Under the pieces are notes generated by a model, which saw only the letters and a list, made by a program, of their open reading frames with translations, was not told where the DNA came from and did not search any database. A program made the position numbers and the translations under genes. From a virus: a stretch of DNA of 14,166 nt. This document shows positions 1,034 through 14,166 of the stretch, in pieces. The DNA is taken from UHGV virus genome UHGV-0065581; one strand, written 5' to 3'. The stretch's first letter is position 1. Every line of letters starts with the position of its first letter.

Positions 1034-1491
1034 GCAGAGTCGCCGCGATTATTTATGCTTTGGTTATCTGCATCATCGTCTGCCTGTCGTGGGCGGTCAA
1101 TCATTACCGTGATAACGCCATCGCCTACAAAGAACAGCGTGATAAAAAAGTCAGTGAGCTGAAGCAGTCGATCGCCACCATCGCTGACATGCAGCAGCGT
1201 CAGCGTGATGTTGCTGCACTCGATGCAAAGTACTCGAGAGAATTAGCCAATGCGAAAGCTGAAAATGAAACTCTGCGCGCTGATGTTGCCGCTGGTCGTC
1301 GTCGGTTGCACATCAAAGCAGTCTGTCAGTCAGTGCGTGAAGCCACCACCGCCTCCGGCGTGGATAATGCAACCAGCCCCCGACTGGCAGACACCGCTGA
1401 ACGGGATTATTTCACCCTCAGAGAGAGGCTGATCACTATGCAAAAACAACTGGAAGGAACCCAGAAGTATATTAATGAGCAGTGCAGATAG
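1030..1491 (+). CDS. Rz: Rz i-spanin (inner-membrane spanin subunit)
   Basis: From GTG at 1030, which overlaps the endolysin stop (GTGA), the ORF reads [29 protein letters not shown]... and ends ...QKYINEQCR, closely resembling lambda Rz (about 153 aa). One N-terminal TM helix followed by a coiled-coil periplasmic domain. The supplied ORF track starts the frame earlier, at 1015. Confidence 0.9.
1250..1432 (+). CDS. Rz1: Rz1 o-spanin (outer-membrane lipoprotein), fully embedded in the +1 frame of Rz
   Basis: 60-aa [63 protein letters not shown] with lipobox LVVVGC and a proline-rich mature region; near-identical to lambda Rz1 from memory. An alternative start is the ATG at 1265. Confidence 0.85.
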
Positions 1492-1494
1492 AGC

Positions 1495-1512
1495 TGCCCA
1501 TATCGATGGGCA
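1495..1512. other. Short hairpin (TGCCCAT-atcg-ATGGGCA) between the convergent Rz and bor genes; possible bidirectional terminator or RNA end-protecting element
   Basis: 7-bp inverted repeat with a 4-nt loop read directly from the sequence, lying between the Rz stop (1489-1491) and the bor stop (1523-1525). No strong U-tract follows. Confidence 0.3.
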
Positions 1513-1522
1513 ACTCATGCAA

Positions 1523-1816
1523 TTATTGTGAGCAATACACACGCGCTTCCAGTGGAGTATAAATGCCTAAAGTAATAAAACCGAGAAATCCATTTACGAA
1601 TGTTTGCTGGGTTTCTGTTTTAACAACATTTTCTGCGCCGCCACAAATTTTGGCTGCATCAACAGTTTTCTCCTGTCCAATTCCCGAAACGAAGAAATGA
1701 TGGGTGATGGTTTCCTTTGGTGTTACTGCTGTCGGTTTGTTTCCAACAGTAAACGTCTGTTGAGCACATCCTGTAATAAGCATTGCCAGAGCGGCAGAAA
1801 ACAACATTTTTTTCAT
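1523..1816 (-). CDS. bor: Bor outer-membrane lipoprotein (lambda Bor / Iss family, serum-resistance associated)
   Basis: Minus-strand ORF. From the ATG at 1816-1814 it encodes 97 aa: MKKMLFSAALAMLITGCAQQTFTVGNKPTAVTPKETITHHFFVSGIGQEKTVDAAKICGGAENVVKTETQQTFVNGFLGFITLGIYTPLEARVYCSQ. Lipobox LITGC. Near-identical to lambda Bor from memory. The ORF track extends the frame 16 codons further upstream, to 1864. Confidence 0.9.
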   Translation of the reverse strand: MKKMLFSAALAMLITGCAQQTFTVGNKPTAVTPKETITHHFFVSGIGQEKTVDAAKICGGAENVVKTETQQTFVNGFLGFITLGIYTPLEARVYCSQ

Positions 1817-1996
1817 CTTATTATCCTGCATTGTTAAAAACGGCAGAATCCTATGTGACAACAATTAAACGATAGTTAAATGGATTGATGAAAATTAAAA
1901 CTATATAGGTGGATGCTCAGCCTATCGGAGGTAGTCAGGATTTGAATGTCAGTCTGTTGTCGGCATTCTGGCAATGCAATTTGGATAAAGCGGGGA

Positions 1997-2119
1997 TTAA
2001 AAAGATAGAGGCGAGCCGGTCAGGTAGAAATGAATCAGGCTCAAAGTGAAGCGGAAAAGGTCTGTGGCACAAGCTGATGCAGCCATAATTACAGCCTGAT
2101 GATTTGTGGAATGAAACAT
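1997..2119 (-). CDS. Hypothetical 40-aa protein with a consensus Shine-Dalgarno, in the bor-HNH intergenic pocket
   Basis: Minus-strand ATG at 2119-2117 is preceded by AAGGAGGT (complement of 2125-2132) with a 5-nt spacer. It reads MFHSTNHQAVIMAASACATDLFRFTLSLIHFYLTGSPLSF, stop TAA (complement of 1997-1999). It is below the 60-aa cut-off of the ORF track. The C-terminal half is hydrophobic. Confidence 0.35.
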   Translation of the reverse strand: MFHSTNHQAVIMAASACATDLFRFTLSLIHFYLTGSPLSF

Positions 2120-2200
2120 GTTGAACCTCCTTAATTGATGTTATTCGAGTGATGAAGGCATTCTGTCCTTCTATAGTGTCCAGTAAATCAAACAGGAAAC

Positions 2201-2220
2201 TTGTCCAACGTGTTGGACAA
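2201..2220. promoter_or_regulatory. Perfect palindrome TTGTCCAAC-gt-GTTGGACAA; candidate operator or protein-binding site
   Basis: 9-bp inverted repeat arms separated by 2 bp, read directly from the sequence. It sits in non-coding DNA about 120 bp upstream of the HNH start and about 80 bp upstream (minus-strand sense) of the small ORF at 2119. Confidence 0.4.
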
Positions 2221-2341
2221 GCCTCTCCATTAGTGAGTTGTATTGATCACAACTCTACAAAGAATTCATTACTGGGTAGATGAAAATAGTTTCACTATGA
2301 ATGGAGGAGGCTATGTCGGTGGCTTCTTCATTGGAGTACAT

Positions 2342-2692
2342 ATGCCCCCACGAATCCCACGCGCCTGCCGTAAGCGTGGATGTGCAGGTACAACCACAGA
2401 CAGTTCTGGTTACTGCGATAAACATCGTGGCGAAGGATGGGTACAGCATCAACGCGGACTGAGCCGCCACCAGCGTGGCTATGGCTCGAAATGGGATGCC
2501 ATACGTGCGCGCATACTGAAGCGTGATAATCATCTGTGTCAGAACTGCCTGCGCAATGGGAGAGCCGTTGAAGCCAGAACTGTGGACCACATCATTCCGA
2601 AAGCTCATGGTGGCACGGATGCAGACAGTAACCTGCAGAGTCTGTGCTGGCCCTGTCATAAAGCAAAAACAGCGCGCGAACGCATCAATTGA
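2342..2692 (+). CDS. HNH endonuclease, terminase-associated (HK97 gp74-like)
   Basis: From the ATG at 2342 (GGAG 5 nt upstream) it reads MPPRIPRACRKRGCAGTTTDSSGYCDKHRGEGW...DHIIPKAHGGTDADSNLQSLCWPCHKAKT, carrying a Cys-rich zinc-binding N-terminus and the H-N-H motif. It lies directly upstream of the small terminase. The ORF track starts at 2243, but that N-terminal extension has no good RBS and does not look like protein. Confidence 0.85.
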   Translation: MPPRIPRACRKRGCAGTTTDSSGYCDKHRGEGWVQHQRGLSRHQRGYGSKWDAIRARILKRDNHLCQNCLRNGRAVEARTVDHIIPKAHGGTDADSNLQSLCWPCHKAKTARERIN

Positions 2693-2839
2693 TAACAGTT
2701 CCCATCTGTAGGGGAGGGGCAGGTCAAATCTCTGCAACCCTGGCTGCTCAGTACCGCCGCCTGACCCTTCCTCACATCGCCGCAGGTTCGAAAACTTTTT
2801 TTGGAAATGTGAACAAACGATTGATAGGTAAGACCGATT

Positions 2840-3322
2840 ATGTCAGGACCTCCGAAAACCCCGCCACACCTGCATTTGATTCGAGGCAACCCCTCAAAGC
2901 GCCCCGTTAAAGACCACAAAAAAACCGCTAAAAAGGATGAAAAAGGTCTTCCTAAAATTCCGCAGCATTTAGGGGCTCAGGGGAAGTACTGGTTCAGGCG
3001 AATGGCGGAAGAGCTGAATGCGGAAGGGATCATTTCTCAGCTTGATGCGCGTGCGCTCGAGTTGCTGGTGGAAGCCTACACCGAATATCGGCATCACTGC
3101 GAAACACTCGATGTTGAGGGGTATACCTACCGCACGGAAACGCAGAGCGGTGATGTACTGATTAAGGCGCACCCCGCGGCGGCAATGAAAGCGGATGCCT
3201 GGAAGCGGATCCGGGCAATGCTTGCAGAGTTTGGTATGTCACCGGCAAGCCGGGCTAAAGTAAATATCGCCGGACCGGATGATGTTGATCCGCTGGCGGA
3301 GCTTTTAAAAGCGAGAGACTGA
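2840..3322 (+). CDS. terS: Terminase small subunit, P27 family
   Basis: 160-aa ORF with a basic, Pro-rich N-terminus (PPKTPPHLHLIRGNPSKRPVKD) and a C-terminus ending FGMSPASRAKVNIAG, typical of P27-family small terminases. Its stop overlaps the large-terminase start (TGATG). Confidence 0.85.
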   Translation: MSGPPKTPPHLHLIRGNPSKRPVKDHKKTAKKDEKGLPKIPQHLGAQGKYWFRRMAEELNAEGIISQLDARALELLVEAYTEYRHHCETLDVEGYTYRTETQSGDVLIKAHPAAAMKADAWKRIRAMLAEFGMSPASRAKVNIAGPDDVDPLAELLKARD

Positions 3323-5079
3323 TGGCAAAAGTGGCTGACGGGATCCGCTACGCCGAACGTGTTGTTGCAGGAGAAATTGTTGCTGGCGAATTTGTCCGCC
3401 TGGCCTGCCAGCGTTTTCTTGATGATCTGAAGTACGGCGAAAAGCGGGGGATTTATTTCAGTGAACCCCGTGCGCAGCACATCCTGAATTTCTACAAATT
3501 TGTGCCTCATGTAAAAGGGGCACTGGCAGGCCAGCCCATTGAGTTGATGGACTGGCATGTATTTATCCTCATTAATATTTTTGGTTTTGTCATTCCGCTG
3601 GTCAATGAAGAGACCGGGGAAGTTGTCATGCGCAGCGATGGCAGCGGACGTCCGGTGATGGTGCGCCGGTTCCGGACGGCGTACAACGAAGTCGCCCGTA
3701 AAAACGCAAAATCAACTCTGTCATCGGGTATCGGCCTGTATATGACGGGGGCAGATGGTGAAGGCGGAGCTGAGGTGTATTCAGCCGCAACCACGCGTGA
3801 CCAGGCCAGAATCGTGTTTGAAGACGCCAAAAATATGGTCAGAAAAGCCAGGTCGACACTCGGGCGGTTGTTTGATTTCAACAAGCTGGCGATTTACCAG
3901 GAGCAGAGCGCATCAAAATTTGAACCGCTTTCTTCGGATGCAAACAACCTGGATGGTCTGAACATCCACTGCGCCATTATTGATGAGCTGCATGCACATA
4001 AAACCCGTGACGTGTGGGACGTTCTGGAAACGGCAACCGGTGCCCGTCTGCAGTCCCTTTTATTTGGTATCACCACGGCAGGGTTTAACAAGGAAGGGAT
4101 TTGTTACGAGCAGCGTGATTACGCCATCAAGGTATTGCGTGGCTATAACAGCGACGTGGAGGGCGCTGTAAAAGACGACTCTTACTTTGCGATCATTTAC
4201 ACGCTTGATGAGGGAGATGATCCGTTTGATGAAACGGTCTGGCAGAAAGCGAATCCTGGCCTGGGCATCTGTAAACGCTGGGATGATCTGCGTCGTCTGG
4301 CGAAAAAAGCGAAAGAACAGGTCTCTGCGCGGGTGAATTTTTTTACCAAACACATGAATGTGTGGGTAACAGCAGAGTCTGCCTGGATGGACATGATTAA
4401 GTGGGAGAAGTGCGAATACATTGCCCCACGACATGAGCTGAAAACGTATCCCATGTGGGTCGGCGTTGACCTTGCTCATAAGATTGATATCTGTGCGGCG
4501 GCAAAACTCTGGCGAACGGATAACGGGCATGTTCATGCCGATTTTAAATTCTGGCTTCCGGAAGGACGGCTGGAACGATGCTCGCGGCAGCAGGCAGAAC
4601 TTTACCGGAAGTGGGCGGAGATGGATAAGCTGATTCTGACGGATGGTGATGTTATCGATCATGCTCAGATAAAAAGTGACTTACTGGAATGGATTGGTGG
4701 TGAAAACCTCAGGGAACTGGGATTTGACCCGTGGAGCGCAATGCAGTTCAGCCTGGCACTGGCTGAAGAAGGGATACCGCTGGTGGAGGTTCCGCAGACG
4801 GTCCGCAATCTGTCAGAGGCCATGAAGGAAACGGAATCACTGGTCTATGCCGGGCGTTTCCATCACAGCAATCATCCGGTCATGAACTGGATGATGTCTA
4901 ACGTTACGGTAAAACCGGACAAAAACGACAATATCTTCCCGAATAAATCCACGCTGGAAGCCAAAATCGACGGCCCTGTTGCGATGTTTACAGCAATGAG
5001 CCGGATGCTGGTCAATGGTGGTGAACCGGAGCTGGATCTGTCTGAACATCTGGTCAGCGTGGGCATCCGCTCGCTTTAA
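3322..5079 (+). CDS. terL: Terminase large subunit (ATPase and nuclease)
   Basis: 585-aa ORF immediately after terS, with a nucleotide-binding region near residue 100-130 (ARKNAKST) and an acidic nuclease-like C-terminal half. Size and position match the HK97-type large terminase. Confidence 0.9.
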
Positions 5080-5291: not shown

Positions 5292-6498
5292 CGCGCCGGT
5301 GACCACGCCAGCAGAGCTGGCGGATGCCATCGGGTTGTCTTACGACACCTATACCGGAAAGCAGATCAGCAGTCAGCGGGCCATGCGACTGACGGCGGTT
5401 TTTTCCTGCGTCAGAGTGCTGGCAGAGTCGGTCGGGATGTTGCCCTGCAATCTGTATCACCTGAACGGCAGCCTGAAACAGAGGGCCACCGGCGAACGTC
5501 TGCATAAGCTGATCTCCACGCATCCCAATGGCTATATGACGCCGCAGGAGTTCTGGGAGCTGGTGGTCACCTGTCTGTGCCTGAGGGGAAACTTTTACGC
5601 CTACAAAGTGAAAGCATTTGGCGAAGTGGCTGAACTGCTGCCCGTCGATCCCGGTTGTGTAGTACCGAAGCTTAACAGTCGCTGGGAACCGGTCTATCAG
5701 GTCACATTCCCGGACGGTTCCACGGATGTACTGAGCCAGGAAGATATCTGGCATGTGCGCACGCTGACGCTGGACGGTCTGGTGGGACTGAATCCCGTCG
5801 CCTATGCCCGCGAGGCAATATCGCTGGCAGCAGCGACCGAAGAGCACGGGGCCAGACTGTTCAGCAATGGTGCGGTGACGTCCGGTGTGTTGCGTACAGA
5901 ACAGACGCTGTCGGATCAGGCTTATGAGCGCCTGAAGAAAGATTTTGAAGAGCGTCACACCGGGCTTGGCAATGCTCACCGCCCGATGATCCTTGAGATG
6001 GGGCTGGACTGGAAGTCGATGGCGCTGAACGCCGAGGACAGCCAGTTCCTGGAAACCCGCAAGTTTCAGCTTGAAGAAATCTGTCGTCTGTTCCGGGTGC
6101 CGTTGCACATGGTGCAGAACACCGATCGCGCCACCTTCAACAATATCGAAGAGCTGGGGCTGGGATTTATCAACTATTCACTGGTGCCGTATCTGACCCG
6201 CATCGAACAGCGGATCAACACCGGACTGGTACGAAAAAGTAAGCAGGGCGTTTATTACGCCAAATTTAACGCCGGGGCGTTACTGCGCGGGGATATGAAG
6301 TCCCGTTTTGAAGCCTACGCCACCGGGATCAACTGGGGAATTTACTCTCCCAATGACTGCCGCGACCTGGAAGATATGAATCCGCGTCCCGGTGGGGATG
6401 TCTATCTCACACCGATGAACATGACCACGAAACCCTCCGATGGCAGTAAAGCCGGTAAGCAGAAGGATAACGCCAATGCAGACGAAACAACGTCTTGA
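5257..6498 (+). CDS. Portal protein, HK97 family
   Basis: 413-aa ORF from GTG at 5257 with GGAGG 6 nt upstream. Position after the large terminase, size and acidic C-terminus fit a portal protein. Confidence 0.88.
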   Translation: MFFSGLFQRKSDAPVTTPAELADAIGLSYDTYTGKQISSQRAMRLTAVFSCVRVLAESVGMLPCNLYHLNGSLKQRATGERLHKLISTHPNGYMTPQEFWELVVTCLCLRGNFYAYKVKAFGEVAELLPVDPGCVVPKLNSRWEPVYQVTFPDGSTDVLSQEDIWHVRTLTLDGLVGLNPVAYAREAISLAAATEEHGARLFSNGAVTSGVLRTEQTLSDQAYERLKKDFEERHTGLGNAHRPMILEMGLDWKSMALNAEDSQFLETRKFQLEEICRLFRVPLHMVQNTDRATFNNIEELGLGFINYSLVPYLTRIEQRINTGLVRKSKQGVYYAKFNAGALLRGDMKSRFEAYATGINWGIYSPNDCRDLEDMNPRPGGDVYLTPMNMTTKPSDGSKAGKQKDNANADETTS

Positions 6499-11501: not shown

Positions 11502-14166
11502 GTGTGGCGACATTACGTGAACTGATTATTAAAATCTCGGCAAATTCCCGGTCATTCCAGTCAGAGATCTCCCGGGCTTCGCGTATGGGGCAGGATTACT
11601 ACCGTACCATGCAGAACGGAGGCCGGCAGTCCGCTGCTGCATCCCGTGAAATGCGGCGTGCACTGGCAGAAGTGACGGATCAGATAAATACAGCTAAATC
11701 TTCGGCACTGAATATGGCGGGGGCATTTGCCGGAGCTTTTGCTACCGGTCATCTTATTTCTCTCGCCGATGAGTGGAATTCAGTAAATGCCCGTCTGAAG
11801 CAGGCCTCACAGTCCAGTGATGATTTTCAGTCATCACAGCGTGAATTAATGGCGATCAGCCAGAGAACGGGGACGGCGTTTTCTGATAACGCCAGCCTTT
11901 TTGCCCGCTCTGCAGCTTCCATGCGGGAGTATGGCTACAGTTCTGAGGAGGTACTGAAAGTCACCGAGGCGATCTCCACGGGCCTGAAATTATCCGGTGC
12001 CAGTACAGCAGAAGCCAGTTCGGTGATCACGCAGTTCAGTCAGGCACTGGCGCAGGGAGTGCTGCGCGGTGAAGAGTTTAACTCGGTGAATGAGAACGGC
12101 GATCGTGTTATTCGTGCGCTGGCTGCGGGAATGGGTGTTGCCCGTAAGGATCTGAAGGCCATGGCGGATAACGGAAAACTGACCGCCGATAAGGTTGTTC
12201 CTGCACTGATTAGTCAGCTTGGGGCGTTGCGTGATGAATATGCAGCAATGCCTGATACTGTTTCATCCTCTGCAACCAAAGTTGAAAACGCCTTTATGGC
12301 CTGGGTTGGTGGTGCGAACGAGGCAAGCGGAGTGACAAAGACACTCACCGGGGTGTTGAATGGTGTTGCAGACAATATTGATACCGTGGCTGCTGCAGCT
12401 GGCGCACTGGTTGCCGTCGGGGTAGCCCGATATTTTGGCAATATGGCGTCGTCTGCTGGATCTGCAACTGCCGGATTAATTACTGCAGCCAGAAACGAAG
12501 TGGCTCTTGCTGAAGTGCAACTTCGGGGGACACAGATAGCAACCGCCAGGGCGCGTGCGGCGGTTTATCGTGCGCAACAGGCGGTTGTTGCTGCTCGCGG
12601 TACCGAAAGGCAGGCCGCAGCAGAAGCGAAGCTGACAGCTGCCCAGGCGTCACTTACCCGTAATATTGCGGCCAGAACAGCGGCACAGACAACGCTGAAT
12701 ACTGTCACGTCAGTGGGGAGTCGTCTGTTAAGTGGTGCGCTGGGGGTGGTTGGTGGTGTGCCGGGACTCGTCATGCTGGGGGCGACGGCCTGGTACACGA
12801 TGTATCAGAATCAGGAGCAGGCCAGAGAATCTGCACGACAGTATGCCGCAACAATCGACGAAATTCGCCAGAAAACGTCGGCAATGTCGCTTCCTGAAGC
12901 GTCAGATAATGAGGAAAAGACGCGGCAGGCACTTGATGAACAAAACAGGTTAATTGACGAGCAGAAAAGTAAGATTAAATCCTTACAGGAAAAAATTGCT
13001 GGCTATCAGTATGTGCTGGCAAACCCGGGCTGGACAACCGATAACGGTTTTATGATTAACCACATGACGTCGGTAAAAACTGTCACAGAAGGGCTTGCAG
13101 AAGCAACAAATCAACTGGCAGTTGAACAGTCCCGTCTCACACAAATGCAGGGCAAAGCGCAATCCATTCAGGATGTGCTTGCCGGGCTGGAGGAGCGACG
13201 GGTGGCGTTGATCCGTCAACAGGCAGCGGAACAAAACAAAGCGTATCAGTCCCTGTTGATCATGAATGGGCAGCATACCGAGTTTAATCGCCTTCTCGGG
13301 CTCGGTAATGAATTACTTCAGCAGCGACAGGGGCTGGTGAATGTACCGTTACGGCTACCACAGGCAACCCTGGATGATAAACAGCAGACCGCACTGAATA
13401 ACAGCGAGCGCGAACTGGCTCTGTCCCGCCTGAAGGGGGAAGCTCGTGAGCGTGCCCGCCTGGGTTATGCTGCGGATGATCTCGGCTTTGTGGGAGAGGC
13501 GTATCAGACAGCCAGACAGAATTATATCAATAACTCACTGGATGCCTGGCGAAATAATCAGGCAAATAAACCCAAAGCGCATAAAAAGACCGAAGCGGAA
13601 AAAACAGAAGATATTTATAAACGGCTGATTAAACAGCAAAAAGAACAAATAGCACTGGCAGGGCAGAATACTGAACTGGCTAAGATGAAATATCAGGTCA
13701 GTCAGGGCGAATTATCAACCCTGTCAGAAGCGCAGAAAAAAACGCTTTTGCAGAATGCAGCACTCATTGACCAGAAAAAGATTCGTGAGCAGCTTGCTGC
13801 GTATGAGAGCAGTCTGGCGGACAGTAATGCCAGTGCCCGGGCATCTGACGAAGCGCAGTTGCTGGGATATGGTGAAGGCTCACGGATGCGTGAACGACTC
13901 CAGGAAATGTGGAGTATCCGGCAGGCGTTTGAGCAGAAAAATAACGAGCTGCTGAGACAGTATCAGGCCGGAGAAATTGAAGAAGCCCTGTGGAAACAGG
14001 AGAAAGAACTGAATAAAAAATATCTGGAAGAGCGTCTCAGCGATCAGCAGGATTATTATGCAAAGGCTGATGCTTTACGCAGTAACTGGAATGCCGGACT
14101 CCAGGAGGGACTGACGAACTGGGCAGACAGTGCCACCGATTATGCTTCGCAGGCGGCAGATGCTGT
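11498..14166 (+). CDS. Tail tape measure protein, N-terminal ~889 codons; continues beyond the window
   Basis: ATG at 11498 (GGAGA upstream, ATGA overlap with the GT stop) opens a frame that reads MSVALRELIIKISANSRSFQSEISRASRMGQDYYRTMQNGG... The ORF track lists no stop-terminated ORF in this frame to the window end, consistent with an unbroken frame. Ala/Gln-rich helical composition and position after G/GT are typical of tape measure proteins. Confidence 0.85.
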   Translation, partial: MSVATLRELIIKISANSRSFQSEISRASRMGQDYYRTMQNGGRQSAAASREMRRALAEVTDQINTAKSSALNMAGAFAGAFATGHLISLADEWNSVNARLKQASQSSDDFQSSQRELMAISQRTGTAFSDNASLFARSAASMREYGYSSEEVLKVTEAISTGLKLSGASTAEASSVITQFSQALAQGVLRGEEFNSVNENGDRVIRALAAGMGVARKDLKAMADNGKLTADKVVPALISQLGALRDEYAAMPDTVSSSATKVENAFMAWVGGANEASGVTKTLTGVLNGVADNIDTVAAAAGALVAVGVARYFGNMASSAGSATAGLITAARNEVALAEVQLRGTQIATARARAAVYRAQQAVVAARGTERQAAAEAKLTAAQASLTRNIAARTAAQTTLNTVTSVGSRLLSGALGVVGGVPGLVMLGATAWYTMYQNQEQARESARQYAATIDEIRQKTSAMSLPEASDNEEKTRQALDEQNRLIDEQKSKIKSLQEKIAGYQYVLANPGWTTDNGFMINHMTSVKTVTEGLAEATNQLAVEQSRLTQMQGKAQSIQDVLAGLEERRVALIRQQAAEQNKAYQSLLIMNGQHTEFNRLLGLGNELLQQRQGLVNVPLRLPQATLDDKQQTALNNSERELALSRLKGEARERARLGYAADDLGFVGEAYQTARQNYINNSLDAWRNNQANKPKAHKKTEAEKTEDIYKRLIKQQKEQIALAGQNTELAKMKYQVSQGELSTLSEAQKKTLLQNAALIDQKKIREQLAAYESSLADSNASARASDEAQLLGYGEGSRMRERLQEMWSIRQAFEQKNNELLRQYQAGEIEEALWKQEKELNKKYLEERLSDQQDYYAKADALRSNWNAGLQEGLTNWADSATDYASQAADA

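Follow-up and report, generated by a model that had tools for sequence, protein, structure and literature searches.

What does a prophage keep in a gap that genome annotation leaves empty? The question is raised by UHGV virus genome UHGV-0065581, of which a stretch of 14,166 nucleotides, referred to here as the window, comprises the late region of a lambda-like Escherichia coli prophage. Between the start codon of bor and the ATG of the gene for an HNH endonuclease lie 525 bp (positions 1817-2341), the largest inter-gene gap in the window, in which the Prokaryotic Genome Annotation Pipeline (PGAP) places nothing in three independent genomes. An earlier reading of the letters alone (the original prediction) had singled out this AT-rich gap as the largest of the region, and its coordinates, size and AT bias were all verified. 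The content of guanine plus cytosine is 0.39-0.43 across approximately 1650-2400 and 0.50-0.56 in the flanks, and bor itself is as AT-rich as the gap.

Judged by comparison of sequences, the gap is a three-part mosaic and not a spacer. To the right of a bor upstream block and the dead end of an Rz1 spanin gene (the Rz1 relic), whose last part it overlaps, it holds a compact cassette on the minus strand (1997-2245), composed of a T7-like 23-mer, a hairpin, a 21-mer known from phage K1E, a leader, the ribosome-binding motif AAGGAGG and a 40-codon open reading frame (ORF). As sequence elements, these parts are securely identified. We propose that the cassette is read by the RNA polymerase of an invading phage of the Autographiviridae and that it expresses a small membrane-active peptide, which aborts or excludes the invader; we give this reading the same chance of being right as of being wrong.

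Candidate promoters of lytic-phage type

In a sensitive BLAST search with positions 1925-2341, short matches linked window 2168-2218 only to Klebsiella phages of the Molineuxvirinae (Autographiviridae), in which they fall in intergenic promoter regions transcribed in the same direction as the minus strand of the window. Within this segment lies ATTTACTGGACACTATAGAAG (2188..2168, minus strand), which we assign to the promoters of SP6-family (K1E-type) single-subunit RNA polymerases. The same 21 nucleotides recur as promoters at positions 13925, 15932, 24431 and 41717 of the K1E genome, one of which precedes the major capsid gene, and the site matches the consensus from -17 to +4 with its invariant core GACACTATAGAAG. 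With a matrix derived from the promoter sites of K1E, it scores 35.3 bits, equal to the highest value among those sites (27.3-35.3), while the next site in the window reaches 4.1. Exact identity over 21 nucleotides and a 31-bit margin within 14 kb rule out chance. The homologous site of Shigella phage SfIV is ATTTAGGTGACACTTTAGAAG, which is the SP6 consensus with one mismatch.

Upstream of this site on the same strand, a 13-pair hairpin followed by a U-rich tract occupies 2196..2225 (minus strand), with a folding energy of -18.3 kcal/mol and a core formed by a perfect 10+10 palindrome (2200-2221). Two inverted repeats had been noticed in the gap before; this palindrome is the one that stood, with compensatory changes among variants (CCAA/TTGG to CTCA/TGAG), and the remaining repeats are weak. 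The two forms correspond to the hairpins of two lytic phages. The SP6 type reads GTCCAAC..GTTGGAC, i.e., GTC(C/T)AACG(T/C)GTTGGAC, and the K1E type GTCTCAC..GTGAGAC, i.e., GTCTCAC(A/G)TGTGAGAC; prophage variants carry either one or the other, with both arms altered jointly. In SP6 and in K1E alike, the hairpin is found 10-13 nt upstream of three promoters. By the match of their sequences, the promoter and the hairpin of the cassette belong to the SP6/K1E promoter family. The palindromes of the lytic phages lie at approximately 6085, 6250 and 14255 in SP6 and at approximately 6795, 6975 and 15900 in K1E, two of each three being located just after the RNA polymerase gene, and they may be early terminators.

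A second promoter-like sequence, of the T7 type (Studiervirinae-like), lies 57 nt upstream of the K1E-type site on the same strand. This 23-mer, CAATACAACTCACTAATGGAGAG (2245..2223, minus strand; predicted +1 at 2228), scores 22.4 bits on a matrix (-17..+6) built from 17 annotated T7 promoters, compared with 26.0-39.2 bits for genuine T7 promoters and 1.1 bits for the next site in the window. Its homologs reach 26.2 bits in SfIV, 29.8 in a variant from IMG/VR and 31.7 in the Klebsiella phage ST101-KPC2phi6.1.

How these elements vary was followed in natural copies of the locus. Two scans of IMG/VR gave about 100 contigs, and the one of them anchored solely on the Rz1 relic gave 53 unique variants, every one of which (53 of 53) holds the cassette. 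Variation among the 53 is greatest from the hairpin to the HNH gene and in the initial half of the ORF. In the promoter, most differences fall at -8 to -12, where ACTGG, ACTTG, AATGG and AGGTG occur, the last being the SP6 form; these positions are the specificity region of T7-family promoters. Some variants carry GACAGTATAGG, a form also used by K1E itself, and recombination has brought T7-type site, hairpin type and SP6/K1E-type site together in several different ways. A different junction is present in IMG/VR contig 2675903654_000015 near 6008-6060, where unrelated sequence takes the place of the hairpin's left arm and of all that lies upstream, including the T7-type site, and the K1E-type promoter and the ORF are intact.

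In a survey of 5,426 complete E. coli genomes, the cassette (1997-2230) was found in 626-632 (approximately 12%), including O157:H7 and extraintestinal pathogenic lineages, and the HNH gene in 936-1,011. Strains 203740 and JJ1886 are examples of lysogens with this prophage. About one third of the E. coli prophages that carry the HNH gene lack the cassette, as does Shigella phage SfV. The comparison of related phages that the original prediction had called for thus revealed a mosaic pocket with presence/absence polymorphism, not a base-for-base conserved spacer, and its expectation of a moron was borne out to the extent that the pocket holds an accessory cassette with a small ORF. Of 58 loci upstream of HNH genes in other genera, none has kept the pocket, save for weak matches to the relic, and a loose motif scan of these loci was too noisy for use.

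A comparable cassette was identified in five temperate phages of Klebsiella: RCIP0114, PDP110P1, ST13-OXA48phi12.5, Kp4864-1 and ST101-KPC2phi6.1. It occupies the same slot in the same orientation, directly after the stop codon of Rz1/LysC and antisense to that gene, and the order of its parts is hairpin, T7-type promoter, SP6-type hairpin, SP6-like site, KP34 promoter, ribosome site and ORF. The T7-type promoter of ST101-KPC2phi6.1 is TAATGCGACTCACTATAGAGAGA, and the SP6-type hairpin CTTGTCCAACACGTTGGACA is intact in three of the five phages. The sequence TAATGTTACAGGAGTA, experimentally defined as a strong promoter for the KP34 polymerase (PMC6834552), is present exactly in one of them and with 1-2 mismatches in the other four. 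The ribosome site is strong, being weaker in Kp4864-1, and the ORFs that follow encode 37-38 residues. Their sequences differ between phages, and all are hydrophobic (best 19-residue windows 1.5-2.3); the C-terminus of the Kp4864-1 peptide is common to the peptide of the window. Since promoters of three polymerase subfamilies stand in one Klebsiella array, such an array cannot have come from any single lytic donor phage. No KP34-type promoter was found in the window or in the E. coli and Shigella variants. Downstream of the KP34-type promoter and ahead of the ribosome site, the Klebsiella cassettes hold a further conserved block, ATAAGTTACACAA(T/G)AGAA, which reaches 12-13 bits with the SP6 matrix and may represent a fourth promoter class.

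Leader, ribosome site and 40-codon reading frame

A transcript from the K1E-type site would start with the G at 2171 and carry a predicted 52-nt 5' leader (2120..2171, minus strand), which opens, according to its predicted fold, with a 5-bp stem-loop (GAAGG/CCUUC). Together with the ribosome site, this leader is better conserved than any other non-coding part of the pocket: the 48 nt from the promoter 21-mer to the ATG (2120-2167) hold 5 variable sites among the 53 unique variants, compared with 24 in the next 60 nt. The Shine-Dalgarno sequence AAGGAGG (2126..2132, minus strand) is placed 6 nt before the ATG at 2119 and is constant across variants, with the exception of one lineage that has AAGGAAG. 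From this ATG runs the 40-codon ORF, MFHSTNHQAVIMAASACATDLFRFTLSLIHFYLTGSPLSF (1997..2119, minus strand), which ends in the antisense of the Rz1 relic and is open at 40 codons in all 53 unique DNA variants.

The halves of the ORF differ in how they vary. In the first 20 codons (2060-2119), 25 distinct nonsynonymous changes were counted against 1 synonymous change, and mosaic recombinants occur among the variants; in the last 20 codons the counts are 2 and 8, respectively. The same pattern is seen in all ten 40-residue proteins retrieved from databases, in which the C-terminal half is invariant and the N-terminal half is mosaic and hypervariable. The behavior of the N-terminal half suggests either diversifying selection or no codon constraint. 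At the other end, where the last 17 codons of the ORF overlap the Rz1 frame, six of nine variable sites fall at positions that are third in the ORF and second in Rz1, and farther upstream in the relic variation prefers the third positions of Rz1. This third-position bias is opposite to what constraint on Rz1 alone would give, and therefore it supports translation of the minus-strand ORF.

The 40-residue peptide had no match in Pfam, PHROGs, PADLOC or NCBIfam, and none of six small proteins matched a PADLOC defence component at E <= 1. A protein search of a large database returned solely unnamed E. coli mini-proteins.

A proposed trigger by the invader's polymerase and its rivals

The proposed sequence of events is as follows. 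Host RNA polymerase is not expected to transcribe the right-hand cassette of approximately 250 bp, and in an uninfected lysogen it would remain silent, as a scan of 1400-2900 revealed no sigma-70 promoter-like site and the U-tailed hairpin would block read-through from upstream. Upon infection by a phage similar to K1E, K1-5 or SP6, and possibly to T7, the newly made phage polymerase would transcribe the cassette from +1 at 2228 (T7-type) and at 2171 (K1E/SP6-type), with the terminator-like hairpin between the two predicted starts. Early in infection, a strongly translated message would thereby yield a small, partly hydrophobic peptide, and this peptide would damage the membrane or otherwise abort or exclude the invader, protecting sister lysogens. 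That the invader's polymerase transcribes the cassette, that the peptide is made and active and that it has any anti-phage effect are steps that we infer, and for the mechanism as a whole the balance is about even. In a more general form, to which we assign a somewhat lower probability, enteric temperate phages may carry "polymerase tripwires", that is, arrays of promoters for the RNA polymerases of several lytic-phage subfamilies (T7-like, SP6/K1E-like and KP34-like), located behind the lysis genes and controlling a tiny membrane-active peptide; the variable specificity bases and the hypervariable N-terminus of the peptide would then record an arms race.

A number of observations weigh against this proposal. 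The T7-type site of the window scores under the weakest genuine T7 promoter, and that of the O157 lineage has a change in the core and reaches 17.2 bits. Divergence among the variants is low overall (0-15%), which makes the retention of promoters weak evidence of selection. The codon-position test is marginal, since it relies on six of nine sites with p ~0.04 in lineages that are not independent; moreover, the invariant half of the peptide lies opposite the conserved end of the spanin gene, so Rz1, in those phages that still use it, could be responsible for some of that conservation. The peptides of E. coli and Shigella are moderately hydrophobic (best 19-residue Kyte-Doolittle windows 1.4 and 0.9) and have charged D and R residues mid-sequence. 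No terminator was found after the ORF, and hence transcripts would continue into bor and the real product could differ from the peptide. Finally, host DNA is degraded during T7-like infections, which limits the time for expression.

Other explanations account less well for multi-subfamily promoter arrays combined with a conserved leader, ribosome site and ORF. One of them, which we consider unlikely, is that the cassette is inert debris: a fragment of an SP6/K1E-like phage, from the hairpin to the first codons of a gene (e.g., SP6 gp20 or K1E gene 18), would have been captured by illegitimate recombination in a mixed infection and would hitch-hike with the widespread HNH-terminase module, the ORF arising by chance where the frame runs into the antisense of the relic. 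SP6 14286 and K1E 15932 show the same arrangement, in which a hairpin is followed after 13 nt by a promoter and then by a leader of about 50 nt, a ribosome site and ATGTT. The copies are little diverged, and the pocket bears other scars of recombination (the joint at ~1931 and the Rz1 relic); the second half of the ORF is, furthermore, antisense to the end of the spanin gene. However, the match to Autographiviridae is limited to 53 nt around the promoter, with no detectable similarity in the leader or the ORF, and the leader is conserved above its flanks. A single donor could provide neither the T7 and SP6 tandem found here nor the T7/SP6/KP34 series of Klebsiella, where the promoters precede unrelated ORFs of similar size and hydrophobicity, and different lineages have different, internally consistent phage types. 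Plain spacer is another account, in which the gap consists of the bor promoter, relics and the upstream sequence of HNH, and the promoter matches are inconsequential as the relevant phages never meet the lysogens. The empty PGAP annotation and the lack of matches to known RNA or protein families agree with it, but identity to the K1E 21-mer and the 31-bit gap exclude chance, K1E and its relatives do infect E. coli, and the frequency of the cassette among complete E. coli genomes speaks against it as well, so we regard it as quite improbable.

The remaining two explanations propose another product or beneficiary. The product might be RNA, namely a long minus-strand molecule made by the invader's polymerase or by rare host transcription, acting as antisense to the lysis/late mRNA (Rz1, Rz, R, S) or serving itself as the messenger for bor, or with its leader as a decoy or regulator. 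Such a role would suit the leader, which is the best-conserved non-coding segment, the lack of a terminator between the ORF and bor, the SfIV-type transcript, which would be antisense to an intact Rz1, and an N-terminal half of the ORF that evolves without codon constraint. It fits poorly with the conserved, perfect AAGGAGG-N6-ATG and the constant length of 40 codons, and the downstream context (bor here, Rz1 in SfIV) offers no common antisense target. A search of Rfam (E <= 1, both strands of 1300-3000) gave only a chance microRNA match inside bor, and the small regulatory RNA anticipated in the original prediction was thus not recovered; we find an RNA product improbable. Alternatively, since T7-family promoters can prime replication, tandem copies with no polymerase gene nearby could let the prophage or a sub-element exploit the transcription or replication of the invader to spread in the manner of a satellite. 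This is the explanation we find hardest to credit: the promoters face away from the packaging and head genes and toward the 40-codon ORF, the cassette is located in a complete lambdoid late region and not in a small integrase-bounded island, and no Autographiviridae-like packaging signal or origin was identified.

The nearest known precedent appears to be the islands of Chen and Schneider. These authors reportedly described tandem T7-like promoters without a cognate polymerase gene in enterobacterial islands, presumed to respond to an infecting T7-like phage. The islands are said to be 4-13 kb long, to have flanking direct repeats and their own tyrosine integrase, and to use the promoters to drive several phage-related genes, and they were reportedly proposed to be satellites. 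The locus described here shares with them a tandem of two T7-family promoter sequences, and annotations of identical prophages list no polymerase among the ORFs of the window. It differs from the islands as reported in being a cassette of approximately 250 bp that is placed between R/Rz/bor and HNH/terS/terL/portal and has one 40-codon ORF. A full-text literature search found no description of the cassette; the scans of Chen and Schneider (2006, Nucleic Acids Res 34:1133) may include the locus.

The likeness to the Molineuxvirinae (SP6, K1E, K1-5 and the SP6-like phages of Klebsiella) consists of the K1E-identical 21-mer and of the hairpin with its type and 10-13-nt spacing; in addition, roughly 50 nt of leader and then a strong ribosome site come next, just as in front of SP6 gp20 and K1E gene 18. 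In contrast to these phages, the cassette resides in a temperate lambdoid prophage with no single-subunit RNA polymerase gene in the window, opposes the prophage late operon and is paired with a promoter-like sequence of another subfamily. As an AT-rich insert between conserved modules that would be transcribed independently and is present or absent among relatives, it resembles lambdoid morons such as lambda bor and lom, and its place beside bor, behind the lysis genes, is a classic one for morons. Classic morons have a host-type promoter and a terminator and are expressed from the prophage, whereas the cassette has no sigma-70 promoter (1400-2900) and no downstream terminator, its only terminator-like hairpin being upstream of the ORF. 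With type I toxins (Hok, TisB, Ldr, Ibs), it would share a peptide of about 40 residues that is partly or strongly hydrophobic and silent until a trigger. Neither an antisense RNA nor a promoter for one was found, and Rfam gave no match; therefore, the locus is not a type I toxin-antitoxin locus, and the expectation of a toxin-antitoxin-like element failed in the absence of both an antisense-RNA antitoxin and a sigma-70 promoter.

The closest parallel in logic is an engineered one. In Lactococcus, phage-triggered suicide cassettes have been built in which a phage-inducible promoter drives a lethal gene; the cassette would follow the same logic, with the invader's own polymerase, recognizing its promoter, as the proposed trigger. 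To our knowledge, no natural system triggered in this way has been established. Should infection set off the cassette, it would amount to a natural defence in which the invader is sensed through its own transcription enzyme, a trigger that is hard for a phage to lose and that has so far been mainly an engineering idea. It would also account for an unannotated gap that recurs across about 12% of complete E. coli genomes and predict which lysogens resist therapeutic phages of the K1E/K1-5/SP6 and T7 types. Moreover, it would supply a search rule for similar loci, that is, a promoter array for foreign polymerases with a strong ribosome site and a mini-ORF behind it.

The rest of the gap and its surroundings

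The genes around the gap are those of a lambdoid late region. On its left lie an endolysin gene (500-1033), a lambda-type Rz (1015-1491) and bor/iss (1523-1816, minus strand, start codon at 1816); on its right, the HNH endonuclease gene (2342-2692, ATG at 2342) is followed by genes for a P27-family small terminase (terS, 2840-3322), the large terminase (terL, 3322-5079), the portal and then head and tail proteins. The pocket had been described as free of ORFs of at least 60 amino acids, which is true of 1865-2242; at the edges, four such frames intrude (1523..1864, 1604..1837, 2243..2692 and 2255..2737).

Smaller frames on the plus strand were considered and set aside. The small ORF with a consensus ribosome-binding site pointed out in the original prediction may be sought at 2301/2313..2462, which has GGAGGAG-N5-ATG at 2313 and overlaps the start of HNH out of frame. 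It is probably not a gene: the ATG at 2313 and its ribosome-binding site are lost in the EC28 and SfIV variants and are thus spurious, and the frame that held is the minus-strand ORF starting at 2119, which is kept in all variants. The ORF at 1909-2049, which appears as a "DUF4347 fragment" in some phage records, is actually the Rz1 relic, and that at 2149-2283 is without a ribosome site and changes freely. Between the cassette and the HNH gene, the plus-strand segment 2246..2341 differs among the 53 variants and includes the HNH ribosome site GGAG (2333-2336). A packaging site, also anticipated in the pocket, is to be placed elsewhere. The linear genome of SfIV ends 58 bp past the HNH stop codon, corresponding to approximately 2750 in the window, and the cos site of an HK97/SfIV-type packaging module is expected at ~2693-2839; cos lies after HNH and hence outside the pocket.

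The middle of the mosaic tells of an exchange of lysis genes. From ~1930 to 2341, the window shares 85% identity with Shigella phage SfIV in the interval from the Rz/Rz1 genes to the HNH gene of that phage. The plus-strand segment 1930..2049 is read as what is left of a dead "overlapped" o-spanin gene of the SfIV/SfV type (Rz1/LysC family), comprising about 39 codons of its 3' end. Its translation matches PHROG 3001, "Rz-like spanin" (E = 8e-8), and aligns collinearly with the final part of the complete Rz1 of SfIV, which in turn matches Pfam PF23793 LysC (2e-15). In SfIV and SfV, Rz1 is of the overlapped kind, extending past the end of Rz, and its product has the lipobox LLTGC. The relic does not encode a complete lipoprotein, as only about 39 C-terminal residues align; its lipobox and N-terminal part are missing, with lambda-type bor upstream sequence in their place and a recombination joint at ~1931. 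A lambda-type Rz is already present at 1015-1491, which is why this segment is interpreted as a dead gene end, evidently left when a lambda-type lysis-plus-bor block replaced the SfIV-type one. In SfV, only 26 bp separate the Rz1 stop from the HNH start, and this spacing identifies approximately 290 bp at 2050-2341 as an insertion common to SfIV and the window. Both this dead end of about 120 bp and the lytic-phage promoters are beyond the reach of reading the sequence alone.

The left block of the mosaic (1817..1931, minus strand) is the lambda-type upstream region of bor/iss, with promoter and 5' untranslated region. It is 99.1% identical (query positions 1-115) to the sequence that immediately precedes bor in lambda, 434 and many lambda-like phages. 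On the far side of bor, inside the 3' end of Rz, a terminator-like hairpin on the minus strand (1450-1464) is followed by TTGTTTTTGC; it is likely the bor terminator and would be the first plausible stop for transcripts from the cassette. The bor upstream block is present in 2,663 E. coli genomes, and window positions 1817-1941 match 653 places in E. coli plasmids at approximately 85% identity, which we take to be the iss region of large, ColV-type plasmids. These plasmid matches indicate that the block moves independently of the cassette.

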